Of a stretch of 64,000 nt of DNA, positions 18,447 to 52,285 are shown piece by piece; positions within the stretch are counted from its first letter, which is position 1; every line of letters begins with the position of its first letter. Location: NCBI GenBank assembly GCA_000002445.1, contig CP000070.1:1376001-1440000 (forward strand), given 5' to 3'. The position numbers were made by a program, and so were the translations under genes. The notes beneath the pieces are model-generated. The model worked only from the letters and a program-made list of their open reading frames with translations. It had not been told where the DNA came from and did no database searches. The DNA is from Trypanosoma brucei. Lineage: Eukaryota.

Positions 18447-19553
18447 GTTTTTCTTCAAACGTGCAAAAAAAAAATGTGACAGCGCGCCCTCTTCCACTCA
18501 CAGGAGGCGGGAATTACGTTCCATTTTGTATTCTCCGTTCGGCGATGCTTCGGTCGTATTTGTTGAGTCCTGCATAGAGTGGGGAAGGGAGATGCAACAG
18601 GGAACAAAGGGCATGTGTGAAACCGTGTTTGTCTTACCCCTCGCTTCCGCTAATTCAAGTGTGCTAGTTGCCCGAAAGATTGGCAGAAACTTTCCAGCCA
18701 TTGTTAGCATTTGATAACCTTTCCGTCAGAAAAAAAAAAGACATTTCTTTTTGACGGTTGGTTGCCGAAGAAAAGTGTGAACCAAGTCTGGCCACGTTGT
18801 GGGACGGGGTTCTGCCGCATTCTTCTTTACGTACATCAGCAGGTTATATATGCCTTGGGCCCGAATGGAAAGCATACCAACAACCCAAATACCTTCCATT
18901 TGTGGATGTGCAGGTGCGTGGAAGGGAGCGAGGGTGTAATAACATTGTGGAAGGTTTGTTCGAGCACTCGTTCTTCACCTCTGCCAGTTTTTCCTTCCAC
19001 AGTTACATACCATTTGCTTCTTTCTCCTCCTTCCTCATTATTACTGTCACTGTCACTGCTACCACGGTAACGTTATTTACCTTGTTTTCAATTGCTTGTT
19101 TAAGCACTCACGCACGGAAGAAGGCCCAAACCGTCAGTGTGCGTGTGTGGTCTAAGTTCTACAAAAGTGCCGGTAGTGAGGGGTAGGTAAAACATATTTT
19201 TTTTTTTTTGGGGGGGGGGAGTAGCAGCCGAGCACCGGGTGTGTTGGAAGTGTAGGGACAGTGTGGCTAGTAGGCAAGTAGTAAGTTAGACATAGAATAA
19301 AAAGGGGTAAAACAAAGTGGAACACTAGCGCCATACACATTGTGTTGGGGAAAGTAGGACAAGGCTGGAGAAGCGAGACGCGAGTGGTGGGAACTATTAG
19401 GTTAGTGAGTGACTTTAGGAGTGTCTTCCGGGGAGAGAATACCTGGAAGCGTAGGGTCGATATAAAGAAGTTTAAATCCCCTTAGTTCGGCTAGTGAAGA
19501 GTAGGGAAAGTAATTTGAGGAGTCAGGGAAGCTTAGTGGAGGGGACTTGCTGC

Positions 19554-22500
19554 ATGCGACCGACATCGTACTTGGCACATGCAGCGCCGTCTACTACTTC
19601 CTCCTCTGCTGCTGCGGTTGCAACTGCGTTGGGCAAAACCAAAACACGACTTAGTCCCCAACAGTCGTCCTTCACTTCGCTGACGCCGTCACACCTAAGA
19701 CATGGTGGACCACAGGCAGCGGAGCAGCTCATGCGGTTGGGCAGAGTGTTTGTGCCAGTTACATATTTGCCCGGTTCGTCTGGTTATCAAACCGCTCAAA
19801 CCCCTGGAGTTTCGCCTACACTACGCCGCAGCCGAAGGTACGAGCCTTACGGTTCTCTGCTACAGATGTATATGGAGCGCGGTTTCACTGACCTGGATGC
19901 CCTATTGTTCCACCCGGAGGCACCTTCTCCGATGGAGCTGTTGTTAAGCGTCCTGCGACATCGCACGGCGTGCCTGCAACTCACACAGAAGGCACTTACA
20001 GCGACTATCAGTCGGCCACGTCACACATCTTCTGCGGGAGCGGCCTCATATACCCTACAAACAGTTTACCACATTCTGAAGAACCACTGTCCATATCTGT
20101 ATGACACCGCCAGTGTTAGGGTATTGCTCTGCCAGGCGTTACTGTGCGAAAGGTTATTTAGTGATGCGATTGAGTTGCTACAGGGGATGCCCGATTCGTG
20201 GATTACGCCTGGGTTGTGGCAGGTCGTGATGGAAGCTGCAGCTGATGGTAAAGTCCCGCATTCACCCCTTCTGTGGAAACTTCTAACGTTGTCACCTGCA
20301 AAAACCCCAGGTGAAGGTCGTGTTGTTAGGACCGGTCAGCGGGTACCTGAGCAACTTCGAAGGGGAATGTCAGCTCGTGCAGCCGAAGTGGTGTCGAGAT
20401 CATTTGTAAACAGAGGAGAGAGCATGGATGAGGCAGCAAAGGCACATGGGGTGCACCAAAACAGCGACACAGTAACCTTCTCATCTTTTGAGGTGCGTCC
20501 GTTGTCGATCGTACAAATAACGCGTGGGGGTAATCAACTGGAATGGTGCCATCTCAGTACCTCAGAAGTTGGTTACGCTGAACAACACTACCGAGCTCTT
20601 CGTAACCTTCGAGGATGGGGTCACGGCGTGCTACGACTGGGAAGGGGTGACCACCTGATGGAAGGCGTTGTTTATGGTCTTGATGCCTTTCTTGCCTCCC
20701 GGCTTATGTTGCGCGCTAATGTGTCTTTCTTTGGCCAAGCGTCCCCGTTGATAGCCCTGCATATTCTTAGGCGATACATACGTACCTGTCACGCCCTGCG
20801 GAAAACTCCCGCACGCTCATCAGTGGTGAAGGGGACGGGTAGTGACGGGACCAGTGAATTAGGCACAAACAGCGACTGGCTGAAGTATCATCAGCCCTCG
20901 TCTACTAGTGGATCTCCAGGTGTGAGCACGAGTGATACACAAGCGTCTGATATTGAGGACTTCATTCACCCTTCACCATTTTTACTGTTCTTCAAAGTCG
21001 TCCGTGAAACCCGTGATGTACTTCCCGGGGGCGGTGGGACCCTTGCATCAGCCGGGCATTCTGGGACCTCGGGTGGAGTACCTACAGCTGGGCTGCCGAT
21101 GATACATTGGGAACTGGTGTGGCGATACTTCCAAACTCTCAACCGTGAGTGCCCCAACTGGCATACCATCATCCCAGAGAAGGCTGGTGACTTGAGTCAG
21201 TATGTTATTGACGTCCTTTGTCGTGGAGCTGATCCGTGGATGACGCTTAATGTTGCGCGTGCCGTTTCTTCACGCCATATTGTTGACGGTTTGGACATGT
21301 CGCTGTGGCTTCTCCACCGACTTGATCCGTCGCACCACATGGAAGAAGCACGCGATGTAACGCGGAAGGTGTTCCGCTGGCTCTTGACTGATGTCGGCGT
21401 GCACTTGCTGCCGCAGTTGCACCACAATCTTATCCCCGCTGCGAGGGTGTTGGTGCGCTTAGGGTTACAGGATGAGCTACGGCAACTATATAATGGCGTG
21501 CTAGATAACGTTTATTTGTTTGCCGAGGATTTCCGCGCAGAGTTTCTACACGTGATGATGGATTTGGTTTGCCCTTCGTGCAGCTCTATTCTATCTGCGC
21601 AGGACGTCTATGCGGAGCGTGTCTGTTCCATCTGTCTTACGATCATACCTGCAAAAGATGCGGGGTCATTGCCTAGCTTTCAGCTTTCGAGCGAACATAT
21701 CTCCCGTTTACGAGAGAAGCGCAAGGTTGTGCGACTTAGTGAGCGAAAGAGGTTGCATGAGAGCATCTGCTGTTGGTCAAAGCGAGGCGAGAATAGTCGT
21801 GAAACAGCTGCAGGAGCAACCAACGTTGGGAAGCATGCGGCGTCACCGGTCTTTCCTCCACTGGATGCTAGCAGCGTGTTTAAAAAGGAAATACTCTCCG
21901 ACACGGCTCCTCTACTTCCCGGGGTACCCGTGGCGGCGCGAAATGTGTTACTTCTTCCAGGAGGAGGTGGGGCAGACGGCGCGGGCAGTTGTGTGTCAGA
22001 AGGAGGTGGTCCCTCTGCCTCGTTTGATGTTTATGCAGCCATGGAAGAGTCATCGCACCGTTTGCAGCTACAAGAGGCAGCCCGTCGTTACGCACTGGCT
22101 CAGCGCGGTGTTGTGTTACCTGCGCGCCATTCTGCTGCCTTTCCATCCCCCGTTCTATCAACATCTTCCGTGTCGACTTCATCGGCGCATTTTTCTCCAG
22201 AGAAACAACGGCAGGGTTTCATGATACCCTCAATGTGTGTCGACGGGCCCTGGACTTGTGTATGGTGCCACGAACAAAACACGGGGTGGGGTTCCCGCAC
22301 ACAATGCGGAGCCTGTGGTGCCGAAACAGGACCCAGCGCTCTGTGGCGGCATTTTGCATACGCAACATCGACAGGGGATATTATGGAAGAAGTACGCGCT
22401 CGTGTGGCTAACTCCGCGGAACGTCCTGTAGACGCAGTGGTGGCGGGTTACCTGTTGATGGTGTACCGTCGTACGTTTCTGCTGAGGGCTACACCGCACG

Positions 22501-25500
22501 ATGCGGAGCGAATAGAACAGCTGATTCAGCGGCTCTGCCAACTACATGAGAGAGTGCTGGCAGGTTACACTTACATGCGCTTCGTTCCTGCCCGTGCACG
22601 CAGCAAGGGAAGTACCCTGTTTGCGCTTGCGCATCTCTTTGGTTGTACCGATGCAGCCTATGCGGGATTGACCACACAACAATTAAGGCGCGATGAGGAC
22701 ACGTTCTTTCAAACCATATTCACACCCGCAACCTGCAAGGTTTGTTTTGGGCAGCATGCGTGGAAGGCTTGCCCGATTATAACGCGGGATTTCTCTACAA
22801 CGAAGCGCCAATCCATTACAATGTCTCCGAAAGAAAAGCAGGAAGCAGTGCTGCAGCAACTTAGGCAGGCAGTGGAGGCTGCGGTGCAACATGGGGCGGA
22901 GAGCAGCCGTCTCGTCGTCGGTGCATACACGGCTTTTGTGAAATCACCCTACCGCGAGCTTTTTTCGGAGACACACAGCCGGGACGTGAATCGCCTGTCC
23001 ATGCTGTTGAGTCGGTACCAACAGTTCCGTCGTGCAGCCTTCGTCCTCTGCCACATTCCGTTACACCTTCGCGACGATGGGGCGTATATGGCTATGGTTC
23101 CATATTTTAACGTTCCTGTGGAGGACGCGCGGGAGTTATTGAGGAAACGGAGTCCCTTGGGTGTTGCGGATGGGACACATCCCAACTTTGTTCAGGTTGC
23201 TGTAACGTGCTGCATGTGTCTTGACGAGCGTCATGCTTCGTTCGAATGCCCGAGACTACTGAAGTGGATTGGAGAAATTGAGGAGCTGAGTGCATCGCAA
23301 AAAAACGGATCGGCAACTTCAGGAGCCCTTGTCGATGTCGTGGCCGCACAGGAGCTGTCCAAGCGATTGCGGGCGCAAGTAGACGGGTGGACCTCTGCGG
23401 GTCCTGAGAGACTACATGCATTTTACCGTTTCCTCCTCCAACGTATAGACGACTTCCAGAAGGACCCGTACGACACATTGCAAACCGACGGTGACGAGCA
23501 TGGTCATCGCCAAGTTGACTCTTGTGTAGTGGGTTCACCACTGAACATGTTGCAACTGCGGAGGCTCGACATGGACGACCCTATTGTCTATGCCATTAAT
23601 AAAGCTATCAGTAAGCTCGCGCTTGCTAAACAGGAAAAGAGTGCTTATCGGTTATATGCGAGGTCTCCCGTGGTTTTCGTGTCCAGTGGGGTAACCTCCA
23701 CAATGCTTCGAATGGCTGGCTACTCTGAAAAAGGTATCCGTACACTAAGTCACAATCACGTGGACGGTAGTGGAAGCTCACAAACATCACTATCTTCATC
23801 TTTGTCTGCGTCAGATGAATCATCAACATTAGGTGTTTCTACCGAAGGTGCACGTTCGGCGGCTGTGCCGATGCGAAATTGTTGCCTTTTGTGCTTTGAC
23901 AGCGAGCACACGTACTTCGACTGCCCAGAATTAATTGCACAACCGACTACTGCAGCTAAACTTGAATATGTAGTTGTGCACGTCGGTGGCATCCGAAGCG
24001 TGTTGGATGGCGTTCGGGCTGCCGCAGCGTACGTTTATCATACATACAACCTGGGACAGCTCACGAGTGATTTGCTTCGTGCACACCCCTCGTTAGTTCG
24101 TTCGCTTCTTCGGCTTGTCCGACGTTGCTTTGCTTGTGGTCTTGTTGGCTCCGGCGTCCGCATCCTGCGGCGTCTCCCTGTGGAAATGGTTCCACCCATA
24201 TCGCCCTATACGGACCTTTGGCGTGCCGCCGGTTTGGGAGAGGAGGTTGTCATCAGTCGACGAGCGCAGTTGCAGGCCCTGTTTGCTGCAGAAGGCTTGG
24301 AGCCGCGCATTGAAACTCCACCCGCTCGCCAGACGTACTCCAACAGGTTTGTTTCCGCTTTGAGTCATGTGCTTCACGATGATCTCTGTCGGCACTGCTA
24401 CCAGCACGGTCACTCACTTGCCACCTGTAGCGTATTCCATGCAGAAGTGAGTTTCGGACGGGATTACGTAGCGGCTTATCGTATGAGTATGATGTCCGAG
24501 CAGCTAGACGACGACTGGCGCGACGCCTACCTTCTGAAACTTGTTGACTTTTTCCTCATGCATAAGGTTCTTATGCCGTACCATATTGTTGGGGTCACGA
24601 ATGCGCTGAACGCGATCGCGGCCATGTGGAGCTTCCGTGGTGAGCCTGGCATCGCGATACGGCATCTACTGAACATTCCACCCGCGTACCGCAGACGACA
24701 GGCGTTCGCGTACATATTACAAGCAGTGGGCGTACCAGTAGACGAAGCCAAGCGCGTTCTCGCTAATGTTTACTTTTCTCCAAGTGAGTTGTCATCCTCG
24801 AATAAACCAAGTGGTAGCTCAGCTTCTGCCTCTGCCTCTGCCTCTGCTGGTTCCGGTTCCGGTTCTGGTGCTGAAAGCGGCAGTGCCGTGGCACAACACC
24901 TTTTGATGCCTAAACCTGCCATTCGTGATGTGGCGATGACGGCTGTATTTAATCAGTTTCCCGACGCACTTGCTGCGTTGGAAGGGAGTGAAGGACGCAT
25001 GGAGGCAATACGCCGCCGAAACGCAACACAGAAGATAACGAAGGGTTCCAAGGCTGAAGGGGGGAATATGAAGACTACCTCGGTGGGAGGCGCAGCGCGT
25101 ATGGCAGAATCCTCGTTGGGGGAAGAACCATCAGTACCGAGTGTGTCTCTCTCACGCCGCCCGGTGCAAAGTGGCGATATCACGACAGTTCGTGAAAACT
25201 TTGACCCGGTCCTCACAGAATTGGAGCTAGCAGTGGGTATGAAACTTGGAAGTCGACACGTACTCTTTACAAGCGCAGTTGACATTCTCGCTGCTGTCGT
25301 TGCCCCGAAGGAAACTGAGGGTGGCAGCGGGAAGGTACAGCAGCCGGCGGTGACAACCACAGTCGTTGTCCCACCACAGGCAGCTTCCCCTCCACCTTCA
25401 GAAAATCCCGCGTCGAAGTTGTCGCCAGAATCCACGGTGGCCATCCCACGGAGCGATGCCTGTGGTCATCCTCACACACGGGAGGAACCTGAAATTGTTA

Positions 25501-25760
25501 CCGTCTTTAGTGGCGAAACGGCAGGGGGAGGTGGTTCAGGAAGGGGAAGCCACCAGCGCTGGGGTGTTGGATCTGATGGTCTTAAACCCTCCTCTTCACC
25601 GTCTAACAGCCCCGGAGGTGATCACGGAAAGTACAGCTCGAGTCAACACTTCCAAACGCAGCAACACTACACACAAAAGGGCCGTTATCACGAGAGGCAG
25701 CGGCGCCGTCAGCGAGAGCGGGATGTGGGTAACAACGGCAATCACGCCCGAAAACGGTGA
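19554..25760 (+). CDS. Large (about 2068 aa) zinc-finger protein: one RanBP2-type ZnF plus four dispersed CCHC-type knuckles; helical-repeat-like N-terminal region
   Basis: The track start at 19494 is GTG, and the first ATG is at 19554. RanBP2-type W-x-C-x2-C-x3-N-x6-C-x2-C motif WTCVWCHEQNTGWGSRTQCGAC at about 22251-22320. CCHC knuckles: CKVCFGQHAWKAC (about 22731), CMCLDERHASFEC (about 23210), CLLCFDSEHTYFDC (about 23885), CRHCYQHGHSLATC (about 24390). Coding Ser/Ala/Gly microsatellite at about 24800-24880. Confidence 0.7.
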   Translation: MRPTSYLAHAAPSTTSSSAAAVATALGKTKTRLSPQQSSFTSLTPSHLRHGGPQAAEQLMRLGRVFVPVTYLPGSSGYQTAQTPGVSPTLRRSRRYEPYGSLLQMYMERGFTDLDALLFHPEAPSPMELLLSVLRHRTACLQLTQKALTATISRPRHTSSAGAASYTLQTVYHILKNHCPYLYDTASVRVLLCQALLCERLFSDAIELLQGMPDSWITPGLWQVVMEAAADGKVPHSPLLWKLLTLSPAKTPGEGRVVRTGQRVPEQLRRGMSARAAEVVSRSFVNRGESMDEAAKAHGVHQNSDTVTFSSFEVRPLSIVQITRGGNQLEWCHLSTSEVGYAEQHYRALRNLRGWGHGVLRLGRGDHLMEGVVYGLDAFLASRLMLRANVSFFGQASPLIALHILRRYIRTCHALRKTPARSSVVKGTGSDGTSELGTNSDWLKYHQPSSTSGSPGVSTSDTQASDIEDFIHPSPFLLFFKVVRETRDVLPGGGGTLASAGHSGTSGGVPTAGLPMIHWELVWRYFQTLNRECPNWHTIIPEKAGDLSQYVIDVLCRGADPWMTLNVARAVSSRHIVDGLDMSLWLLHRLDPSHHMEEARDVTRKVFRWLLTDVGVHLLPQLHHNLIPAARVLVRLGLQDELRQLYNGVLDNVYLFAEDFRAEFLHVMMDLVCPSCSSILSAQDVYAERVCSICLTIIPAKDAGSLPSFQLSSEHISRLREKRKVVRLSERKRLHESICCWSKRGENSRETAAGATNVGKHAASPVFPPLDASSVFKKEILSDTAPLLPGVPVAARNVLLLPGGGGADGAGSCVSEGGGPSASFDVYAAMEESSHRLQLQEAARRYALAQRGVVLPARHSAAFPSPVLSTSSVSTSSAHFSPEKQRQGFMIPSMCVDGPWTCVWCHEQNTGWGSRTQCGACGAETGPSALWRHFAYATSTGDIMEEVRARVANSAERPVDAVVAGYLLMVYRRTFLLRATPHDAERIEQLIQRLCQLHERVLAGYTYMRFVPARARSKGSTLFALAHLFGCTDAAYAGLTTQQLRRDEDTFFQTIFTPATCKVCFGQHAWKACPIITRDFSTTKRQSITMSPKEKQEAVLQQLRQAVEAAVQHGAESSRLVVGAYTAFVKSPYRELFSETHSRDVNRLSMLLSRYQQFRRAAFVLCHIPLHLRDDGAYMAMVPYFNVPVEDARELLRKRSPLGVADGTHPNFVQVAVTCCMCLDERHASFECPRLLKWIGEIEELSASQKNGSATSGALVDVVAAQELSKRLRAQVDGWTSAGPERLHAFYRFLLQRIDDFQKDPYDTLQTDGDEHGHRQVDSCVVGSPLNMLQLRRLDMDDPIVYAINKAISKLALAKQEKSAYRLYARSPVVFVSSGVTSTMLRMAGYSEKGIRTLSHNHVDGSGSSQTSLSSSLSASDESSTLGVSTEGARSAAVPMRNCCLLCFDSEHTYFDCPELIAQPTTAAKLEYVVVHVGGIRSVLDGVRAAAAYVYHTYNLGQLTSDLLRAHPSLVRSLLRLVRRCFACGLVGSGVRILRRLPVEMVPPISPYTDLWRAAGLGEEVVISRRAQLQALFAAEGLEPRIETPPARQTYSNRFVSALSHVLHDDLCRHCYQHGHSLATCSVFHAEVSFGRDYVAAYRMSMMSEQLDDDWRDAYLLKLVDFFLMHKVLMPYHIVGVTNALNAIAAMWSFRGEPGIAIRHLLNIPPAYRRRQAFAYILQAVGVPVDEAKRVLANVYFSPSELSSSNKPSGSSASASASASAGSGSGSGAESGSAVAQHLLMPKPAIRDVAMTAVFNQFPDALAALEGSEGRMEAIRRRNATQKITKGSKAEGGNMKTTSVGGAARMAESSLGEEPSVPSVSLSRRPVQSGDITTVRENFDPVLTELELAVGMKLGSRHVLFTSAVDILAAVVAPKETEGGSGKVQQPAVTTTVVVPPQAASPPPSENPASKLSPESTVAIPRSDACGHPHTREEPEIVTVFSGETAGGGGSGRGSHQRWGVGSDGLKPSSSPSNSPGGDHGKYSSSQHFQTQQHYTQKGRYHERQRRRQRERDVGNNGNHARKR

Positions 25761-30630: not shown

Positions 30631-32757
30631 ATGAATGTCGATGGTACTGTCCAACAAGCCCGTGTGGGTGTTGTTGTACACCGAGCGGAGTCTCTTGTTG
30701 GACTGAGCGCGAGTGGGACGTCGAATCCCTTTGTTTCCGTTTCGGTTGGCGCGACAGTCCTCAGTACTCCTGTTGTGCAGAATAGCACAAACCCCACATT
30801 CGAGGCTGCTTTTAACTTCCCCGAATGCCCTATTCCAACTATTCTGACACTTCGTGTATTTCACAAGGAGGCCGGTGGGGTAGAGAGTCCACTCGGCAGT
30901 GCAACGCTTACGCTGTTTTCGCCGTCCGCGATGACTCGCCGACAAGTACAACTGGGACATGGTGGTAGCGTTGTTTTGTCTCAGAAGGCCCGTGACGGAT
31001 GCGGATCGCTAGACATTTCTTATGAGGTAGTGGCGCCAACGTCCTATAAAGCAACTGCATCGGAACAACGAAAATCTGTTGACGACGATCTACCTTCGTT
31101 TTTGAGGGATGACGCGGGGGCGGAAACCCTAACTTCAGCATTTACGGCATTCTCCCAACCTCCACCACCACCAGCTGCTGCAATACCGAAACCACCAGAA
31201 TTTGGAGCTGTTCCTCCACCACCACCAGCTGCTGCAATACCGAAACCACCAGAATTTGGAGCTGTTCCACCACCACCACCAGCTGCTTCAATACCGAAAC
31301 CACCAGAATTTGGAGCTGTTCCACCACCACCACCAGCTGCTTCAATACCGAAACCACCAGAATTTGGAGCTGTTCCACCACCACCACCAGCTGCTGCAAT
31401 ACCGAAGCCACCAGAATTTGGAGCTGTACCACCACCACCACCAGTTGCTGCAATACCGAAGCCACCAGAATTTGGAGCTGTTCCACCACCACCACCAGCT
31501 GCTTCAATACCGAAACCACCAGAATTTGGAGCTGTTCCACCACCACCACCAGCTGCTGCAATACCGAAGCCACCAGAATTTGGAGCTGTTCCACCACCAC
31601 CACCACCAACTGCTGCAATACCGAAGCCACCAGAATTTGGAACTGTTGCCCCACCCGTCCCCGTCGTGGTACCCTCCACCTCTGGACAATCATTTATTGC
31701 GAGTGCGGCTTTTGCAAATGAGGACTCTTCTGAGACGTCACCACCACCTTCGTCTTCAACTATGCCGGACACTGGGGGCACCTCTCACTCATCTCACCGC
31801 GGTTATTCATCTGCATCGTCCCCCAACAGCACCAATCATACGCAGCTGCAGAGGCAGCAAATGGCATCGGCATCGTCAACGGGAGCGACATCGACATCTC
31901 TTCATACTTCATCGAATCATTCAAGCACCGCACCCCCGCCACCACTTCAGGCACAAAAGGAACCGCCACTTCATGGAGTAGATAAGACTTCGCGGGCTCC
32001 TTCGGGGTCAGCTTCCGTTGAACCAACCGCAAAGGATAGTGATAAATCGCAGAAGAAAGTAAGAATAGCCACGAATGCGAAGGACCGCCCAACTAGTGCT
32101 GGAACCGCTGCAAACACGAAACCACCACTGCGGCAACCTTCAGAATCAGGAAGGGGGAGATCGTGTTCGTCTGTGAGTCCAACCCGCGAAGCACGACGGA
32201 CTTCGTCGGCACAGGGAGGTCGCTCCTCTCCCTACGTCCATGGACCCGTTGTGAAAAAAGTGAACAACTTCACGGCACAGGGGACGACACTGCTTTCTGC
32301 AGCACGGCGTTCTGCCAACTTTCAGGTTCCTACGATTTATCAGTACCCTGAAGAGTTGCTTGCAGCCGCCTCTCAAGGTGATGTTGCGGTGTTTCAGAGA
32401 CTACGAGAGGAGGACCCACAACTCTCACGTGGTTTTGAGAAAGTGCGTGACTATTCAGGTCGGACCATCCTGCATATTGCTGCATGGTATGGACACGTGC
32501 AGGTGCTGAAGATATTGCTGCAACCCACTCCGGTGGCTCCGCTTCTTGAGTTACGTGCCCTTCGGTCGGTGAATGGAAACACAATCCTCCACAGCGCAGC
32601 TCAGGGAGGGAGAGTGGATGCAGTGCAGTGGCTTCGGTTTAGTACCGCCGCAGCGTCCCTCATTGGACAGAGAAATGCGCGCGGTATCACGGCAACTGAG
32701 TGTGCTAGGGAAGCGGGCTTCTCGAATGTGGCTTTGATGTTGGCTGAAACAATGTAA
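30631..32757 (+). CDS. C2-domain protein with 9 x 18-aa proline-rich tandem repeats and C-terminal ankyrin repeats
   Basis: ATG at 30631. N-terminal C2-like beta-sandwich signature (VVVHRAESLVGLSASGTSNPFVSVSVG...NPTFEAAFNF...LTLRVFH). Repeat unit IPKPPEFGAVPPPPPAA(A/S). C-terminal ankyrin repeats (GRTILHIAAWYGHVQVLKILL, GNTILHSAAQGGRVDAVQWL). Confidence 0.8.
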   Translation: MNVDGTVQQARVGVVVHRAESLVGLSASGTSNPFVSVSVGATVLSTPVVQNSTNPTFEAAFNFPECPIPTILTLRVFHKEAGGVESPLGSATLTLFSPSAMTRRQVQLGHGGSVVLSQKARDGCGSLDISYEVVAPTSYKATASEQRKSVDDDLPSFLRDDAGAETLTSAFTAFSQPPPPPAAAIPKPPEFGAVPPPPPAAAIPKPPEFGAVPPPPPAASIPKPPEFGAVPPPPPAASIPKPPEFGAVPPPPPAAAIPKPPEFGAVPPPPPVAAIPKPPEFGAVPPPPPAASIPKPPEFGAVPPPPPAAAIPKPPEFGAVPPPPPPTAAIPKPPEFGTVAPPVPVVVPSTSGQSFIASAAFANEDSSETSPPPSSSTMPDTGGTSHSSHRGYSSASSPNSTNHTQLQRQQMASASSTGATSTSLHTSSNHSSTAPPPPLQAQKEPPLHGVDKTSRAPSGSASVEPTAKDSDKSQKKVRIATNAKDRPTSAGTAANTKPPLRQPSESGRGRSCSSVSPTREARRTSSAQGGRSSPYVHGPVVKKVNNFTAQGTTLLSAARRSANFQVPTIYQYPEELLAAASQGDVAVFQRLREEDPQLSRGFEKVRDYSGRTILHIAAWYGHVQVLKILLQPTPVAPLLELRALRSVNGNTILHSAAQGGRVDAVQWLRFSTAAASLIGQRNARGITATECAREAGFSNVALMLAETM
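31160..31645 (+). repeat. 54-bp coding tandem repeat, about 9 copies (proline-rich 18-aa unit), with minor A/S/V/T variants
   Basis: Direct inspection: ccaccaccaccagctgct(g/t)caataccgaa(a/g)ccaccagaatttggagctgtt is iterated with period 54. Confidence 0.9.
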
Positions 32758-37044: not shown

Positions 37045-39285
37045 ATGGAAACACAGGTACCTCAGAATGTTATGGAGGATGCCATTGCGGTGTGGAACCG
37101 TTTGCAATGTTGGGGAAACGCTAGCAACTATCTTCTGGCGTTGAATAACCCGTGCATGCAGCACCAAAAGCATGGCGTAACAAAATGGGATCCCTACTCG
37201 ATACGTCTTGCAAGGCGCGTCGTTGCGGTGGTGGAGCGGCTTGACAACCACAGAGAGAAGTCTCTGGGGTTAGGCGCCACACCACGTGAAAAGTTACTGG
37301 CACTGGCTGAAGTTGTGCGGTTGTGTTTGGAATCGTTTGACCCTCTGGGAACTCCGTTGGTGCAGGGGGCAGCATTTCCCTTCAAAACACCGTCATCATT
37401 CCTCTCGCCATCGCCTCCCGTTGAGTGGGAAAGAGCTGTTGATAAGCGAGTTGTGAGTGGTACCATGATCATGGAGGGGCTACACATCCTCACTTATCCC
37501 AGTGTGCAACTGAGAATTGAAGCAAGTGTTGAGCAACTGCTGCAACACATTATGGAAGAGTTTAACGGTGGAAGCAAAAGGACGATGAGACACTCACCGG
37601 AGGAGTTGCGAGCGCTACGAGCAACCACCATGCTTCTGGAGGATTTCGATGCTTTGTATAAGCGTATTGTATGCGTGTTTCCGTGTGTTCGAATGATGGG
37701 ATCGCCGCATATTCCTGTTGCTCTGTTACCTATCGTAATTAAATTGTACTACAAAATGGCAGAATGGGTGCGAGACGCAGAGGTCACTGGGGAATTGAAC
37801 AGCTTCGCTCAGATAACGGTATTCAAGAAGAAGAAGTTGTTCGTGAAGATGCGTCGGGGGGATAAGAATGTACCTTGGGGACTGCAGTTTAATGATGAGG
37901 GAAGAGTGGTACAAGTCAACCCATCTGTGCGTTCCGGTTCCCACGCCGCTGAGGTGTTGCATGGTTTGACACAATTCTTCAAGAAGGGTTTGTCGATAGT
38001 TGAACTGAATTCACAACCGGTTAGCTTTGCAAATTTGACTGCAAAGCAGGCGACAGACAAGCTTCACTTTTGGACAATTGATGATTCTCGTCTGTCCCTT
38101 ACAATGCAAGACGACCACACGACTCCTCCTTTACTTGAGCAACTCGCCTTTTTTGTGGTGCCAGGCGCTAAAAAACAGTGTGGAACACTACGTGATGGAG
38201 ATGATACGTGTGCGACGCTCGTCCTCCATAGGGAACTCTGCGGAATATCATGGGACATCCGCCTCACCTCGGAGCTGTGTGTAGTGGATGTACCCACCAG
38301 CATTCTCTCTAAGGAGGCGGCAACTTTCTTCAAAACTCACCACAAGCAGCTGCGCATTGGGGCTATAAATGGTGTTAAAGTGACGAGAGCGTATCAAGTA
38401 GAAGCACTGAGTCAGTTCGTCAACACGATCGTGATTGATTTTTACAAAGTCCCACCCCCAGAGACGGTACCTGCACAAGTAAAACCGAAACGGGTCCCTG
38501 CCCTGAAGAGTGATACGAAAAATACACCCTCTCAACATACCTCTGTGGTTGTGACTGCTACTGCAGTAGCTGCTCCAGAAACCGTGAAGCGCATTGCGAA
38601 CGATGGCAAGGAGCAGCAACTGAGGGAGGTGCAAACATCAAAAAAGAAGATTGAAGATTCATCTCCACTTGATAAGGCAGGCGGTAAATCCAACAGTACA
38701 ACTGCTATTGTCCATGCAAAGGAGGCACCACTCGTACTGGTTTCCACCGTGGCTGAGAAATTGAGGAGTATCGCGAGAGCAGGAAGCATTCCGGGGAAAA
38801 ATGGTGCCAACGGTTTTTTGGAGGATGCTGAAAGAAGAGCAGTAAGCAAGAACGATGAGTACCGCTCTGCAACGAAACAAAATGAGGTGCGAGGCAACCT
38901 TGACGGTGATGTGACGACTTCTCTTACAGACACAGTGATGGTGTTGGATATGGATGGCGCGGAGCCACTTACTTTCCCCAACAATGTTACAATAAATATG
39001 TTGACACCTGAGGAGATGGTGGTGCAGCGACCATCATGCGAAAAGAAGTGGGGATTCTCCCTTGAAACGGAAGGAATGTACCCTAAAAAGACCATTCACA
39101 TGTCTGGACTTCCGCGTATGCTGGATGAACAATGGCATCACCCGTTCAGCAAACTGTTTCGTTCACGTAAAGGTGAATGGCGCATTGCTAGTGTGAACGG
39201 GACCCCGGCGTCACAGTTGCCCGAAGTAATTGACGTAATGAAACATGCTTTGAAGATGCAAATTAAGTTCATTAGACGATGGTAG
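37045..39285 (+). CDS. Hypothetical protein with three putative PDZ-like modules
   Basis: ATG at 37045, immediately after an A13 run. Three segments with PDZ-like patterns: WGLQFNDEGRVVQVNPSV...GLSIVELNSQPV, ISWDIRLTSELCVVDV...LRIGAINGVKV, and WGFSLETEGMY...EWRIASVNGTP. This is pattern recognition only. Confidence 0.55.
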   Translation: METQVPQNVMEDAIAVWNRLQCWGNASNYLLALNNPCMQHQKHGVTKWDPYSIRLARRVVAVVERLDNHREKSLGLGATPREKLLALAEVVRLCLESFDPLGTPLVQGAAFPFKTPSSFLSPSPPVEWERAVDKRVVSGTMIMEGLHILTYPSVQLRIEASVEQLLQHIMEEFNGGSKRTMRHSPEELRALRATTMLLEDFDALYKRIVCVFPCVRMMGSPHIPVALLPIVIKLYYKMAEWVRDAEVTGELNSFAQITVFKKKKLFVKMRRGDKNVPWGLQFNDEGRVVQVNPSVRSGSHAAEVLHGLTQFFKKGLSIVELNSQPVSFANLTAKQATDKLHFWTIDDSRLSLTMQDDHTTPPLLEQLAFFVVPGAKKQCGTLRDGDDTCATLVLHRELCGISWDIRLTSELCVVDVPTSILSKEAATFFKTHHKQLRIGAINGVKVTRAYQVEALSQFVNTIVIDFYKVPPPETVPAQVKPKRVPALKSDTKNTPSQHTSVVVTATAVAAPETVKRIANDGKEQQLREVQTSKKKIEDSSPLDKAGGKSNSTTAIVHAKEAPLVLVSTVAEKLRSIARAGSIPGKNGANGFLEDAERRAVSKNDEYRSATKQNEVRGNLDGDVTTSLTDTVMVLDMDGAEPLTFPNNVTINMLTPEEMVVQRPSCEKKWGFSLETEGMYPKKTIHMSGLPRMLDEQWHHPFSKLFRSRKGEWRIASVNGTPASQLPEVIDVMKHALKMQIKFIRRW

Positions 39286-44822: not shown

Positions 44823-47800
44823 ATGCAAAGGAAGCAAAGAAGAAAATAGGATGGGTGGATGTGAGAAAAGAAAAAAAGGAAAAAGAAATGGAAGCGTCAA
44901 GGGTTTAGAGTGTTTACGCTTTCTTCTATGTTTTTGTATGTGTGGGAAAGGGGGGGGAATAAGTAACAGAGGTGAAGAAACATACGCTACTGGTGCAATT
45001 TTTTTTTCTTTTTGTACACCAAAAAGAGGCGATAGCAGGAAGTACAGGGAAGAAAAGGGGGAAAAAGGCGAGACAAAACAAGATACCAAAGGAGAGATTG
45101 AACTAATGGAAAGGGAGAGAAAAGATGTTTATCCCCCCCACCCCAATTCGTTCATTTGATTGTTTCTTTTTATGTGTGCGCGTGTGTGTAAATATATATA
45201 TATATATATATTACAGGGGGCGGTAGGAGGGAAAGAAAAAGGCAAAACAAATGCAAAAGAAAAAGGGAATTAAAGGATTTGGGAGAAAAAGGAATAGGAG
45301 TAATAAAGAATAAAAGAAGTGGGAGCAAGTACAAAACAAAGCAAAGCAAAACACAAAAACAAAACAGGTGTAAAGGATAAAGCAAACAAACAACCAAATA
45401 AAAGACAATAAGTGACATGCAAGCGATGCGGTACAAATCAAATATGTGGGGGGTCCGCTGAATGGCTCTGTGGCTAACACGTTTGAGGAGCGGGCGGAAA
45501 TATTAACGGCAGGAGTAATTTTTTTAAAAAAAATGATTCGTATGTAAGTGAAAAAGTTATGAGAAGTAAACTGACAAATGTTTTTTGTCTGTGTTTTAAC
45601 GTTGTTGTGTACATTCATGTAAAGCGAATATATATATATATATATGTGTGTGTGTGAGAGAGAGAGAGAGAGAGTAAGTCAATGAGTGTTTTTCTGTCTG
45701 AAGGTAGGAAAATGATAATTTTTTTTCTCTTGTTAAAGCAACGTTTGTATGTCGTGTTTGCCTTTTTGTTAGCAATTTCTTTTCCTGTTGTCTTTTCCCC
45801 CCTTTACTTGCTATTTCCCTTAATATCTTTACTCGCTTTTGTTCATTCTAATTTCCCTTTTCTTTTTTTTTATGTATCTTTTATCTTTTCTGTTTTTTGA
45901 ATGTAACTCAGATATGCCACTGCTTCTGGTGGAAGTAACATAAAAGTGAACAACCGTTTTTGTTTTTTTTTGTTCTTAACATTCTCTCAGCGCCAAAAAC
46001 GCGAGGGAAGAAATACTACCAAAGAATGTGTGCAACTAAATTTGAAGTTTCTTTAAAAAAACAAAAATACAAAAAAACAAAAGAGAAAAGAGGGAAAAAA
46101 GAAAAATTATCGGAGGGAGTTTGCGGTCGCGAGTATTGTCACCCGTTTTCCTTCAGAGAAGTGTTTTAAGTGTAGGAATGCATGTGTGGGGGATTTTTTT
46201 TTTTTTTTTGTGAGGACGAGGAGCAAAGTTCACACTTAAATCAGAAGTGTAAAAGAAAAGGGAGAAAATAATGATAATGCTGATGATGATGATAATAAAA
46301 GAAAAGAGAAGAGGAGAGCGCAAACAAAAAGGAGGAAGAGACAAAGTATATAAATCAATAAATAAAAAGTTGAAGATATGAGGCTAAGAGGCAGAAAGCA
46401 ACATGCAGTAATGATTGTATATGCGCAGGAGATAAAAAGTGGTGCTGCCGCAGCCCTTTTTTTTTTTTCAAATTTAATCGTTTGTTCATCCGAGAGTGAA
46501 CAAATGTTTGAACGTATTTCCACCTGATGCCCCTCCCCCCCTCAACACACACACACACACCACCTAATTTCTTGCTTTTTTTTTTGAAACTATTTATTTA
46601 TTTTTTTACTCGGTTCTCTGTTCCTCATTCACCCTAGCCGTCTCATCTCTGCGCGGTACATACACGTATAAATGTAAATAATATATATATATATATATGT
46701 TTATTTATGCGTGTGTATTACGTTATATAATATTATATAACATTATCACATGATATGGTTATTATTGTTGTTGTTACTTATTATTATCATCGCCGTGGAC
46801 ATGCAATTTATGGTCCCTTTATTCTCACATTTTTCTCTCCGTCCCACCACCTGCGCATATATATATAAATATAAATAAATAAATATATATTTATTTATTT
46901 ATTTTCACCCTCCTTTCTTTTGGCGTATTGTTGATGCTGCCGCTGATTTTTATCTCTTTCATTGACTTGAACTGTTGTGTGCCCCTCCCCCTCCCCCTCC
47001 CCCGTACGCACCGCCTCAAAACAAAAAAATTTGTGCAGTGAAAAGAACTGAACTGAAATGAAATGAACTGAAATGAAATGAACTGAACTGAAATGAAATG
47101 AACTGAAATGAAAAATGGAAAAAGAGAAGGAATATACAAATGAAAGTCGAGGAGGAGAATGAAATCAGTTAAATGTTTGGGACAATTTCTTATTTTTCCG
47201 TTTCGTTTAGTTCGTTCCGAGGCCTCATTTATGCGGCGTTACGTCCTTTTGTCTTCGTTTTGTTTTTGTTTCAATTTGATTTGTTGTGTGTTTTATTTCC
47301 CATCAATCGCGTTCTCGTCACCACCACTACAACCACCAGTTTTCTCTGGCGTGTTTTTTTTTCTTTCTTTCTCTCTTAATTTCCTTTTTCTTCTTTTTTT
47401 CTCTCTTTTTTTTTTCTTTTTGGGACGAAAGGACAAATACGCTACCACTTAACGTCGCTCACGATAGTGGACGCAATGGAATACGTGTATTTGATTTGTT
47501 TTTTTTGTTTTTTTCTCTTCACTTTTCTGTTCTCGGTGTTGTGTCAAACTTTTTTTCTTTTTTTTTACTTTTTTTAAATATATATATATATATATATTTA
47601 TATATGTTTATGTGTTTTGGTGACAGAAGCAAAGGTGTTTAAAAGAAGCAAGAGAGAGAGAGAGATTAAAAAAAAAAATGAATATTTGAGATATGTTGCC
47701 TTTTCATACACATTAATATTCATATGTGTATTATATTCTCCTTTTTCTTCTTTTTTTTTCCAACGCCTTTTCCCATTTCTTAACCGTTCTTGCATCTTAC

Positions 47801-50800
47801 AATACCTCTTGATATTACTTTGTTCATGCACTTACTCGCTTATTTTAACTTCTTTCATATTATTCACAATAACATTCCCTTTACTTTTCCCTTTGTTTTT
47901 TTTTCCTTCATCTTACTTTATCTCTTTTTTTTTCTTTTTATTTTCCGTTTCACTCCTCCTCTCTTTTCTCCAGTTCCGCATAACTTTCCATGCCCGTGTG
48001 GAAACCCTCGAAGGCAAGTCTGCGTGAGTGAGCTTGTGATATTATTTGTGATTTAAATAAATAAATAAATAAATATATTTAAAATTGATGTTTTGTAATG
48101 TTCTGCCCATTTGTTTTTTTGTATGTTTTTTTTTTCCATTTGGTTCAATAACTAAAAACACCAAAAAAAAATTTAATTATAATATAAATATATATATATA
48201 TATTAATATTTGTTGTGGCTGGGAACACATCCACAGCGGCACCAACACCAGCAACGGTTCCTGGGGGAAGGCTTTTTTTTTAAATGTTTTAAATATTTTA
48301 AATATTTTATTATTATTTTAAATGTCAAAACGAAAAAAAACCCAAAAAAGAGAGAATTTTAAAAAAAATGTATAATCAAAAAAGAACGAGAAAAGGATGG
48401 GAAAAAAGACGGAGGATAGAAAAAAAAATTAAAAAGAAAAAAAAAAGACACACTTACAAGAGGCTAACGGAAAGGCATAAAATATGTGTGAAGGATGTGA
48501 ATACCCGCCTTCTTACAGGAAAAAAAAGAAAGAAAGAAAGAAAAAATATTTCCTTCATCTTTTTTTTAAAAATATTATGTCGTGATGAAGGTTTCAATTT
48601 ATTTTATATCTTTTAGCTTTCTTTTTTTCTTTTTTTTTATCTTTTCAGTTCTATCTCCTCCGTTTTTTTTTTTTTGCCGTGTCGAGTTTGGTGTTGTTTT
48701 AAAGGTCGCGATCATTTATGTCTTTTTGTTTGTTTGTTTGTTTTCTATTTTTTTAATTTGTTTGTTTTCCTCCCAATTCACTGTTGCTTTTGCTCTTACT
48801 TTTCCTTTTTGTTTGGTCATTCTTTCTGTTTTTTCCCCCTTTCTTTTGTTATTGTTGATGGATGAGCGTACAAAATCTTTTTTTTTTATTCCGTGTTCAT
48901 ATCATTTTATTTTATTTTATTGCTTGTTCAATTTTTGTGTTTTCTTTTGTTTAGTTTTTTTTTTTTGCTTTTTATGATTTTTTTGTATGTTTCGTTTCAT
49001 GTTTTGTTGTGCATCATTTTTCCTTCTTTTTTTTGTGTTGTTATTACTCATTTTCTGTTTTTTTTTGTTAACAATAAAAAAAGAAAGAGAAAACAAATAA
49101 AAAAAACACAAAAAGTGGAGAAAGTGAAGGTGACATTTAATCGTGTGGACACGGAAAGAAAATAAAAAGAAGGCAAGCGAGAGAACAAACAAAGGGAGAA
49201 AACAACACCACGAAAATAATAATAATAATAATAATAATAAGTAATTTATAAATCAAAACCATCAACAACACTAAAAAGCAAACGAAACGAAACGAATTGA
49301 TGATGACGACGACAACACGCAACATAATATTAGAAAAAGAAGAGGATGGGAGGGGGGAGAGGGGAAAGAAATAACTAAAATAAACAAAAAAACAAAAAAG
49401 GGATTCAATGGAAGATTAAAAAAAAAAAAATAGAAATAAATGCAACAACACTCGAGAAATAAATAAAAAAAAAGAGGGAGGAGGAAAAAAAAAGGTTTTG
49501 CCTGAATGTGTATTTGGAAAGGGAAGGCTATTTATGAAGGGAATTATTATTATGTAGACTCGGCAATAAGTGAAAGTAATGGCTTTTTTTTCTTTTTCTT
49601 TTTTCTTTTTGATCATAACGCACGCTTTTCTCATCCTTTTCTTTTTCTTTCCTTCTCTTTTTTTTATTTTGTTGTTTTGGTTTCTGAGCTGTAGTTTTCG
49701 CACATGTATGATTAATTTAACTGAGTGAAGAAAGGGAAAGTGAACGTAATATATTAAATGCATATACAGCACATGTGCATATTCACATATATATATATAT
49801 ATATATATATATTTCTAACACATGTGCGTGTTTCGGTGGAAGGAATTAATATATAAAGAGGAAAGGAATAACATTATATGATACAGTGTGAAATAAAACT
49901 AATGAAGTGATATGAAAATTTTCTTTTTTCCTTTTTGTTGTTGGCGCTGAAGCAATGATAAAAAAGAAAAGGGGTTGAAAATAATGGGATTTTGAGATGA
50001 ACCAAACCCAGAGGGATGAGGTAACTTTCGTTAAAAGAAAGAGAGAAGGGAAGATATTATGTGTATGAATGAAACTCTTTTCGTTTATTTGTATGCGCGG
50101 CAACGGTGTGGCGGGATGAGAAATTAAAATTAGTGAATCAGGAGAGGATATTATGCATCACAGGGGAATACAAGCATATATAATATATATATATATATAT
50201 AAACATATAGATAGCAATTTTCATTTTATATTTTAAAGAAAAGAGAAGTGGAAAATAAAGGAGCTTTAAGAAGAGATTTCTTTCCCCCTTTAAACCCCTC
50301 TTTCCCTCTCTTTCTGTCCTCCATTCCCCGACCCCCCGTGGCGTAGGGTTCTTTTTCTTTTTTTCTTTTTTTCTTTTTTTGCACTGACTGTCATTATTAC
50401 CATTACCATTATTATTATTATTATTGTTATTTTAATGTTTTCATTATTACCAAAAAAAAAAAACAACAAATTCTCCTCACCCGCCCCTCTAGCCGGCCCT
50501 TCCACTCTCATTTTTCTTTTTCTTTTTTGTTTTTTTCTTTTTGTATCCCTGCGGAGCAAAATCAGAGGGTCACAAAAGAAAAATACCCGGAGCCACTTAT
50601 ATGCACGTATGCATTTTTTAATTAAAAAATATATATATGTATATATGTATTGGTGTATCAAGTGCGTATATGTATGTATTTATTTCTCTTAATCGTGTTT
50701 CATTATAAGAGGATAAACAGCCAAATAAACAAAAGAAAAGGAAAGAAAAGAAAAAAAAGAAAAGCAAATGCGCATCATATATGTATGTAAAAAAAACAAA

Positions 50801-52285
50801 TAGATAAATATATGTGTGATGTGTTTCAGGGCAAGGGTCCTGCGGATTGAAAGTGTTTTTCGTTGTTTCTTTACTATTAATATTATTAATTTTCTTTACT
50901 TTTTTTTCTTTTTTGATCCCTTTTCTTTTTCTTTTTTTCTTTTATTTTCCTCCTTCATTCGATTTGCTTCTTTTTTTTTTAAAAAAAAACTAATGCGCAC
51001 TGCAGTGAGACAGCGATTGGTGGCGATACGTGACTTATACAAATATGTGATGATATGAAACGAAATGAAAGAGAAAAAAAAGGGTGAAAAGGAGAATGGG
51101 AAAAATATTTAAAAAAACCAAAACAGCAAAAAAAATTGAAAAAAAAAGAAAAAATGAGGCAATATTGTCATTATTACTGTTATTATTATTATTGTTATCG
51201 ACGTTTTGGTTACATGTGCAGGGCCTTATTGCAATGAGTTGTGAGACTTTCGATTCCCTTTTTCCCTTTCCCCTTTTGGCTTTTTTTTTTCCTCCCCCCC
51301 TCTCCACCTTTCTCTCTAGTTTTCCTTCCTTACAGACCTCCCTCACAGTTTTTCAGCTTCCCAATTTTACTCTTTCGTTTTTGGTTTGAGCTTTCTTCGT
51401 AATTTGTTTGTTTGTTTATTTCTTTGTTTGTGTTTCGGTTGGATGGGGGAAGGTGGGAAGAACAACAAAAATTAAAAGAAGGGATTGAAAAGAAAGCAAA
51501 CAAACCGATCGAAAGAGAAGAAACTTCAAACACGGAGAAAATAGAGAAGGCGAAAAGAAATAGTTTCGTAGAGTTTTGTTTTTGCGTCGCACCTCACGCA
51601 CGAACTTGTGAGTGTGTATCACCCGTCTACTGAACCGTGTGTTTGGACAACGTTTGCTCGGCACTTCGAAGCGAAGAAACGCTAACAAGCAAATAAACAA
51701 ACAATGAAAAAACATCATCAAGTAATCGTTCGGTTTTTTTTTTAGCGTTTGCCTATTTCGTCCTCCTCCCCCCCCCCTGTGCATCGTCACCTGTAACGGA
51801 TGGATGTGTAATGCTTATGCGAAGATGATCCTTCCCTCTTTTGACTTATATTACTGTGTTTGATTCTACTCTCAACTTACTACTGTCTTGTTTTTCCTAT
51901 TCAATTCTTCTTTATTTGCCTTTCCTCTTGATCGTTTAATCCTTTATAGTGTTTTCTCTCTCTCTCTCTCTATTCCTTTCCTTTTCTGTTGTCTGTTTGC
52001 TTGCGCGAAGGAAGTCACAGGTTTGTGTTTCATTGTAGGACCTCACGTATAATACTGAAAGGACTCAAAAAAAAAAAATTGTTTCCATAAGCAACAGAAG
52101 CGCAACAAAGTTAAGGAAAGTGCCTTCTGACATTTTGTTGTTGCACATCGCCTACGCATATCGTTTTGTTTATCCAAGAAAATACGCTAATTTAGTCGAC
52201 ATCCTTTCTACTGCAAGCTGTGAGGCAAAATCCAGTGATTTTCCTCTTGTTTGGTGTTGACGTTTGCGAAGGGAAGTAGCGTGTT
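44823..52285. repeat. About 7.5-kb ORF-free, AT-rich, low-complexity island dense in microsatellites and homopolymer runs
   Basis: No ORF longer than about 150 codons on either strand. (TA)n at about 45190, 45625, 46685, 47580, 49790 and 50180. (TG)n(GA)n at 45640-45680. (CA)n at 46545. (CCCCT)n at 46981-47010. A GAACT/GAAAT pentamer array at 47041-47110. (AAT)n at 49205-49235. (ATT)n at 50395-50435. Long strand-asymmetric polyT and polyA blocks. Confidence 0.8.

Follow-up and report, generated by a model that had tools for sequence, protein, structure and literature searches.

The gene Tb927.7.5280 of Trypanosoma brucei TREU927 is located in a 64,000 nucleotide (nt) stretch of chromosome 7, here called the window, and all nucleotide positions given below are positions in this window. 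Profile comparisons indicate that residues 896-1745 of its 2068 amino acid (aa) product are a five-fold tandem duplication, with units of approximately 140-225 aa that each consist of a zinc module and a helical bundle. In brief, units 2 to 5 start with a CCHC zinc knuckle, and unit 1, as read from its motif, carries a C4 module in place of the knuckle. The complete coding sequence is found at 19554-25760 on the + strand, from the first ATG at 19554 to a stop codon ending at 25760, and encodes 2068 aa plus stop, with a mass of 226.3 kDa and a pI of 9.0. The translation of the window is identical to the database protein (UniProt Q57ZG1, XP_846151.1).

To date, Tb927.7.5280 is known merely as a hypothetical protein. 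The supplements of Peikert et al. 2017 tie Q57ZG1 to Tb927.7.5280, with the old identifier Tb07.27E10.570, the name "hypothetical protein, conserved" and a mass of 220.21 kDa (PMC5436138). A full-text literature search with the gene identifiers and accessions found, among the papers searched, none with Tb927.7.5280 in its main text, thematic searches likewise gave no hits, and the unit architecture does not seem to have been described before.

Zinc modules and repeat units

An earlier reading of the DNA letters (the original prediction) had placed four CCHC knuckles and one RanBP2-type zinc finger in the 6.2 kb open reading frame (ORF). Scanning the 2068 aa protein with regular expressions, we found the four knuckles and a RanBP2-like C4 module where they had been predicted. 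Knuckle 1 (aa 1061-1073, nt 22734-22772, CKVCFGQHAWKAC) has the spacing C-x2-C-x3-H-x4-C. Knuckle 2 (aa 1219-1232, nt 23208-23249), knuckle 3 (aa 1444-1457, nt 23883-23924) and knuckle 4 (aa 1612-1625, nt 24387-24428) have the spacing C-x2-C-x4-H-x4-C, and the general pattern predicted for all of them, C-x2-C-x3/4-H-x4-C, is thus the one observed. The distance from knuckle to knuckle is 158-225 aa or 0.47-0.68 kb, close to the 0.5-1 kb proposed earlier. Shuffling the protein 2000 times gave a mean of 0.0005 CCHC patterns and a maximum of 1, against 4 observed, and the four knuckles are therefore far above chance. The RanBP2-like motif, W-x-C-x2-C-x3-N-x8-C-x2-C, spans aa 900-921 (nt 22251-22316). 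A sixth zinc module, absent from the original prediction, is a C4 zinc-ribbon-like module (C-x2-C-x14-C-x2-C) with the sequence CPSC-x14-CSIC at aa 673-694 (21570-21635, + strand). It is predicted to form short beta strands, with a predicted local distance difference test score (pLDDT) of 85-88, and is followed by a long basic helix.

In eight Trypanosoma orthologues that share 55-63% identity, the six modules retain each of their Cys and His residues without exception. A deep alignment of 26 sequences across Kinetoplastea has a mean column identity of 21% and contains 28 invariant columns; 13 of these are Cys/His columns of knuckles 1-3, including all four ligands of each. For the other three modules (C4 ribbon, RanBP2-like module and knuckle 4), ligand conservation among the 26 sequences is 90% or higher. 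The original prediction was to be abandoned if the knuckle-like patterns failed HMM thresholds and the Cys and His residues proved not to be conserved in orthologues; the residues are kept across these 26 kinetoplastid homologues. Judged by this conservation, the zinc modules are genuine and strong purifying selection acts on them, and we infer that all six bind zinc.

In five homologues (P0019, P0022, P0023, P0024 and P0026), knuckle 3 carries an insertion of approximately 10-30 aa between the Cys pair and the His, and the C4 ribbon gains approximately 10-75 residues between its Cys pairs. The ligands are kept despite these insertions, so the zinc sites tolerate large loops.

The repeat was detected by splitting the deep 26-sequence alignment at the zinc modules and comparing the pieces by HHalign. 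Among units 2-5 every pair, and also the pair of units 1 and 2, could be aligned over 120-139 columns, with a probability of 90-95% and E-values from 5e-8 to 1.5e-6. Unit 1 aligns less well with units 4 and 5 (E approximately 1e-3) and with unit 3 (E 0.06). The control segments from the N-terminal, linker and C-terminal parts gave E-values of 0.002 or higher, and the C4 ribbon against unit 1 reached just 0.002. The N- and C-terminal segments were considered as extra copies of the unit and rejected (E >= 0.0075). It should be noted that the alignments cover the helical part of the units as well, e.g. the common pattern ...A-x-x-V/L-L-x-x-I/V-P-x-x-x-R...Y...G-V-x-x-E-E...L-L, and that the repeat is visible with the deep alignment only; HHalign from a shallow alignment of eight sequences detected the knuckles alone.

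All units are encoded on the + strand. Unit 1 (aa 896-1056, 22239-22721) contains the RanBP2-like C4 module at 22251-22316 plus a helical bundle. Unit 2 (aa 1057-1214, 22722-23195) contains knuckle 1 and unit 3 (aa 1215-1440, 23196-23873) knuckle 2, each plus a helical bundle, that of unit 3 having two disordered inserts. Knuckles 3 and 4, again with a helical bundle each, belong to unit 4 (aa 1441-1608, 23874-24377) and to unit 5 (aa 1609-1745, 24378-24788), the best conserved of the five. The wide and even spacing of the zinc modules is explained by this arrangement, since each module heads one tandem homologous unit. The earlier view of zinc modules spread along a scaffold instead of clustering is right as to the wide spacing, but the modules are not scattered.

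The region aa 655-1745 was modelled with AlphaFold2 using the 26-sequence alignment. The model has a mean pLDDT of 78.7, a predicted TM-score (pTM) of 0.63 and 481 residues with a pLDDT of at least 90, and its low-confidence loops fall on poorly conserved inserts. With four Trypanosoma sequences as input the pLDDT was 43. In the model, a unit begins with a small beta zinc module and continues with some six to nine helices, and the units together form a predicted alpha-solenoid that is TPR/PPR-like and nothing more specific. The best fold matches are PPR/TPR proteins, and these are weak, with TM-scores of 0.1-0.26.

The model agrees with the original prediction in that the protein is largely helical repeat. 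The repeats had been placed in the N-terminal third, however, and the solenoid is found in the C-terminal half, between the knuckles. TPR hidden Markov models (HMMs) gave no match in the T. brucei protein itself. The sole support for the earlier placement is a borderline TPR_19 match in 2 of the 24 family members tested, the orthologues from T. cruzi marinkellei (26.1 bits, cut-off 25) and T. conorhini (17.7 bits), which spans one hairpin equivalent to aa ~208-240 in T. brucei.

Relation to known families

A Pfam search with the whole protein gave zero matches even at E <= 10. Using excised zinc peptides of 31-32 aa, the only Pfam match was zf-CCHC_3 on knuckle 2, at 15.2 bits with a cut-off of 27. 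The families zf-CCHC (PF00098) and zf-RanBP (PF00641) were unmatched in the whole protein, in the peptides and in all 24 members, one of two outcomes that the original prediction had named as together speaking against it.

We pooled 62 knuckles of the family into one profile and searched it against 177,635 PDB sequences. The profile retrieved 2ec7_A (HIV-2 Gag) with an E-value of 2.3e-6 and HIV-1 NCp7 with approximately 1e-4. Ten HIV/SIV nucleocapsid chains were found at E <= 6e-4, followed by the knuckles of Lin28, TUT7 and RECQL4. Since the profile retrieves solved nucleocapsid knuckles and the ligands are conserved, the four CCHC modules are, on profile evidence, divergent but genuine knuckles.

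Well known CCHC proteins (HIV NCp7, CNBP, Lin28 and UMSBP) have in common with Tb927.7.5280 the pattern C-x2-C-x3/4-H-x4-C, usually followed by Pro, and multiple knuckles per chain. They are small proteins with knuckles 10-30 aa apart, in contrast to the 158-225 aa of Tb927.7.5280, where each knuckle starts a helical domain. They also carry a canonical Gly after the second Cys, a position that is F, L or Y in the Tb927.7.5280 family. This substitution, together with the x3 spacing of knuckle 1, probably explains why Pfam fails on the knuckles. Knuckle 1 has x3 in trypanosomatids and x4 in the most divergent homologues.

The C4 module at aa 900-921 is RanBP2-like by motif, which is a resemblance and not an established membership. 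It shares with RanBP2-type fingers (Nup153, RanBP2, ZRANB2, RBM5) the skeleton W-x-C-x2-C-x3-N...C-x2-C and two predicted short beta hairpins. The loop from the Asn to the next Cys is x8 in T. brucei and 7-8 residues family-wide, as opposed to 6 in the canonical RanBP2-type, and the Asn is a His in at least six homologues. The tail CGAETGP.A.WR that follows the module is specific to the family. A family profile of the module searched against PDB had the zinc ribbon LysW as its top match (E 0.0085), with the fingers of Nup153 (E 0.02-0.5), RanBP2 (E 0.35-1.7) and RBM5 (E 1.0) making up most of the list, none of them significant. What stands of the predicted RanBP2-type finger is thus the resemblance in pattern; the spacing rule and the Pfam HMM both fail, and the best Nup153 match has an E-value of 0.02.

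The same module contains CVWCH at aa 902-906 (22257-22271), which resembles the CxxCH pattern of haem c binding sites. We rejected cytochrome c or haem binding, as most homologues have Q, R, L, Y, G, D or E in place of the His of CVWCH. The CxxCH pattern is probably the reason why the Angomonas orthologue bears the UniRef name "Cytochrome c domain-containing protein".

PPR HMMs gave no match at E <= 0.1 in any of the 24 members, and PDB sequence searches using the single protein, the whole-family profile and a unit 2/knuckle 2 profile gave no significant relative. Organellar helical-repeat RNA binders such as PPR10, the trypanosome KRIPP/KPAF PPR proteins and yeast Rmd9 show a 35 aa periodicity that is not seen in Tb927.7.5280. 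Its repeat period is approximately 140-225 aa including the zinc module, unlike the ~35 aa PPR motifs.

An exhaustive HMMER search, using a profile of aa 600-1725 against 1.84 billion cluster representatives, yielded only 28 proteins, all of one family. The members come from Trypanosoma, Lotmaria (Leishmaniinae), Angomonas (Strigomonadinae) and the prokinetoplastid Apiculatamorpha spiralis, and the rest are from environmental and read-archive assemblies. A word-indexed homologue search recovered Trypanosoma orthologues only. The homologues are approximately 1500-3500 aa long, and by these searches the family is present across Kinetoplastea and so far found in kinetoplastids only.

The three most divergent homologues, one of which is from Apiculatamorpha spiralis, contain an extra and more canonical CCHC motif (e.g. 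CHNCWRFGHDSKSC) approximately 150 aa past knuckle 4, at aa 1407-1420 in P0031, aa 1011-1024 in P0034 and aa 1425-1438 in P0035. This suggests a sixth unit that may have been ancestral and then lost, or may have been gained in that lineage; trypanosomatids do not have such a unit.

Mitochondrial import and possible function

Tb927.7.5280 is expressed, nucleus-encoded and imported into the mitochondrion. In the ImportOmics data set for RNA interference against ATOM40, the protein has a ratio of 0.18 from 30 peptides, with a p-value of 0.0036, and is flagged as part of the importome (PMC5436138). The reference table of the same study marks it in the TriTrypDB-mitochondrial, mitochondrial-proteome (Panigrahi 2009 / Mach 2013) and TargetP columns, the columns being assigned by counting tab positions in the row (PMC5436138). 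These published data support the mitochondrial location that the original prediction had hinted at.

The original prediction had also linked the protein to mitochondrial RNA processing or editing, and this link found no support. Tb927.7.5280 is unmarked in the mitoribosome, RNA-editing, MRB1, membrane, outer-membrane and respiratome columns of the Peikert reference table (PMC5436138), in which no association with REH2C or an editing complex is recorded. The supplements of the Gazestani complex map do not contain it, and it has no sequence match to the chains of the T. brucei mitoribosome, its assembly intermediates or RESC solved in PDB.

The T. brucei protein H2F1, a cofactor in REH2C, is a mitochondrial multi-zinc-finger adaptor in RNA editing that is thought to bridge RNA and protein partners. 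Tb927.7.5280 resembles H2F1 in being a big kinetoplastid mitochondrial protein with many zinc fingers distributed along the chain. The fingers of H2F1 are of the C2H2 type, in contrast to the CCHC and C4 modules of Tb927.7.5280, and H2F1 is not known to be homologous to this family.

We suggest that Tb927.7.5280 is a multivalent scaffold or chaperone for single-stranded nucleic acid in the mitochondrion, most likely for RNA, a proposal whose chances we consider to be evenly balanced. In brief, the solenoid would be an extended platform that displays the zinc modules at regular intervals, and the protein would thereby contact single-stranded nucleic acid, most likely mitochondrial RNA, at several sites simultaneously. 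Its role may be that of a scaffold, or of a chaperone similar to nucleocapsid, in a step of mitochondrial gene expression that is particular to kinetoplastids. The proposal builds on the fact that single-stranded nucleic acid is the typical ligand of retroviral-type knuckles as well as of PPR-like solenoids, and the restriction of the family to Kinetoplastea points to a lineage-specific mitochondrial process involving nucleic acid. On the basis of its sequence features, the protein probably binds nucleic acid and probably prefers RNA over DNA.

Alternatively, Tb927.7.5280 could be a protein-protein scaffold or assembly factor, e.g. for a mitochondrial ribonucleoprotein or a respiratory complex, with zinc modules that are structural or bind protein and make no contact with nucleic acid. 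We find this doubtful, as the pooled knuckle profile is nearest to the nucleocapsid knuckles, which bind nucleic acid. Furthermore, an aromatic or hydrophobic residue is conserved after the second Cys and 2-3 residues past the His, a feature that recalls the base-stacking platform in NCp7 and may serve a similar role.

A somewhat less probable explanation is that the protein is a maintenance factor for kinetoplast DNA (kDNA), in which the knuckles bind single-stranded DNA and the solenoid tethers the replication or segregation machinery. The best-known kinetoplastid mitochondrial CCHC protein, UMSBP, has five CCHC knuckles and binds single-stranded DNA at a G-rich minicircle origin sequence, and the modules of Tb927.7.5280 are retroviral-type CCHC knuckles as well. 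The range of the family across Kinetoplastea matches the distribution of kDNA, but it fits guide RNA-directed editing and the unusual mitoribosome equally well. Tb927.7.5280 was detected in a tripartite-attachment-complex data set, but as a trace only (counts of 1 and 0), which is uninformative. The TrypTag supplement text on kinetoplast proteins names Tb927.7.5320 and not Tb927.7.5280, and is weak evidence as its localisation list is incomplete. The best fold matches of the model are RNA-binding PPR proteins, which argues for RNA over kDNA.

Because Pfam recognises no module and CCHC knuckles are common in retroelement Gag, one might consider an artefact, with Cys/His patterns that arose by chance in a long ORF or are left over from a degenerate Gag-like retrotransposon. 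Conservation and proteomics lead us to reject this very improbable explanation: shuffling predicts 0.0005 patterns, the ligands stay invariant throughout Kinetoplastea, the protein is detected by 30 peptides with ATOM40-dependent import, and the gene is a conserved one of approximately 1500-3500 aa with no reverse-transcriptase or integrase match.

Within the proposal of a nucleic acid scaffold, we speculate further that the ~150 aa zinc-capped helical bundle is an undescribed organellar nucleic acid-binding repeat, a kinetoplastid-specific counterpart of the PPR/OPR/HPR arrays, with one nucleocapsid-like knuckle supplied by each unit. In that case Tb927.7.5280 would be a missing multivalent organiser or chaperone of RNA in a process found in kinetoplastids only, e.g. 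guide RNA-mRNA annealing or the handling of pre-edited mRNA, or alternatively act on kDNA single strands. This extension is tentative and we do not expect it to hold in full.

Kinetoplastid mitochondria rely on kDNA, on guide RNA editing and on a protein-rich mitoribosome, lineage-specific machinery that is essential to the parasites and absent from their hosts. Tb927.7.5280 is an abundant (30 peptides), imported protein of 226 kDa for which an anatomy of six conserved zinc sites and five units is now defined, and this modular anatomy offers precise targets for mutagenesis as well as expressible domains. If binding of RNA or DNA holds true, the units would be a new repeat class among organellar nucleic acid-binding proteins.

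Start codon, flanking regions and neighbouring genes

The annotations conflict on the start codon of Tb927.7.5280. Met60 at nt 19731 has been annotated as a start as well, and its product of 2009 aa has a mass of exactly 220.21 kDa, as quoted in Peikert 2017. The Met1 product has 226.26 kDa, and its length of 2068 aa is the one given by GenBank and UniProt. Residues 1-59 are kept in other Trypanosoma species, and the interval from the upstream polypyrimidine tract (19197-19209) to 19554 lacks an ATG in every frame. The conservation of the 59 residues and the lack of an intervening ATG appear to favour the Met1 start at 19554 over Met60.

The N-terminal 95 aa (19554-19838, + strand) are S/T/A-rich, with a pI of 11.9 and 11 K+R against 1 D+E, and residues 1-56 contain zero acidic residues. 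In composition, aa 1-95 resemble a mitochondrial matrix presequence. The conserved N-terminal region that follows (aa 96-667, 19839-21554, + strand) has no family match in T. brucei and is not detectably related to the five units.

Downstream of the units, a conserved C-terminal region (aa 1746-1930, 24789-25343, + strand) contains the near-invariant motif QsGdI..LRedFdPiL..LE...GmKLGSRH.LF.SA. No family matches this motif, which occupies aa ~1870-1905 (25161-25268), away from the repeat units; its residues Q1872, E1891 and G1899 hardly vary throughout Kinetoplastea. The protein ends with a low-complexity basic tail (aa 1931-2068, 25344-25757, + strand), which is poorly conserved and has a pI of 10.0.

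In the window, which is part of chromosome 7, every large ORF is on the + strand, like in a trypanosomatid polycistron. The locus is fixed by the neighbouring genes, identified as Tb927.7.5220 (a kinase with an FHA domain), Tb927.7.5300 (TbUNC119BP), Tb927.7.5310 (YEA2) and Tb927.7.5320 (KP84). The gene order in trypanosomatid polycistrons carries no functional information. Tb927.7.5320 corresponds to the ORF at 37045-39285, which has the domains DUF7759, DUF7761 and DUF7762 and was recently named kinetoplast protein KP84. It is a second mitochondrial/kDNA gene in the same transcription unit, 11 kb downstream of Tb927.7.5280. Upstream, Tb927.7.5260 is likewise in the mitochondrial reference set.

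Inside the co-directional gene cluster, we observed an AT-rich stretch of approximately 7 kb at ~45000-52000, with a GC content of 26-40% against ~50% elsewhere. This stretch has no ORF of at least 200 aa, no tRNA and no Rfam match, and the only repeats in it are short ones of the (TGAAA)n type at 47039-47113. A 54 nt tandem repeat at 31162-31655 (9.1 copies, 95% identity) lies in TbUNC119BP (Tb927.7.5300) and is its published proline-rich region. Another tandem repeat, of 102 nt with 8.7 copies and 98% identity, is located at 56329-57212 in a 1147 aa ORF (56263-59706) with no Pfam match, and encodes a 34 aa protein repeat.

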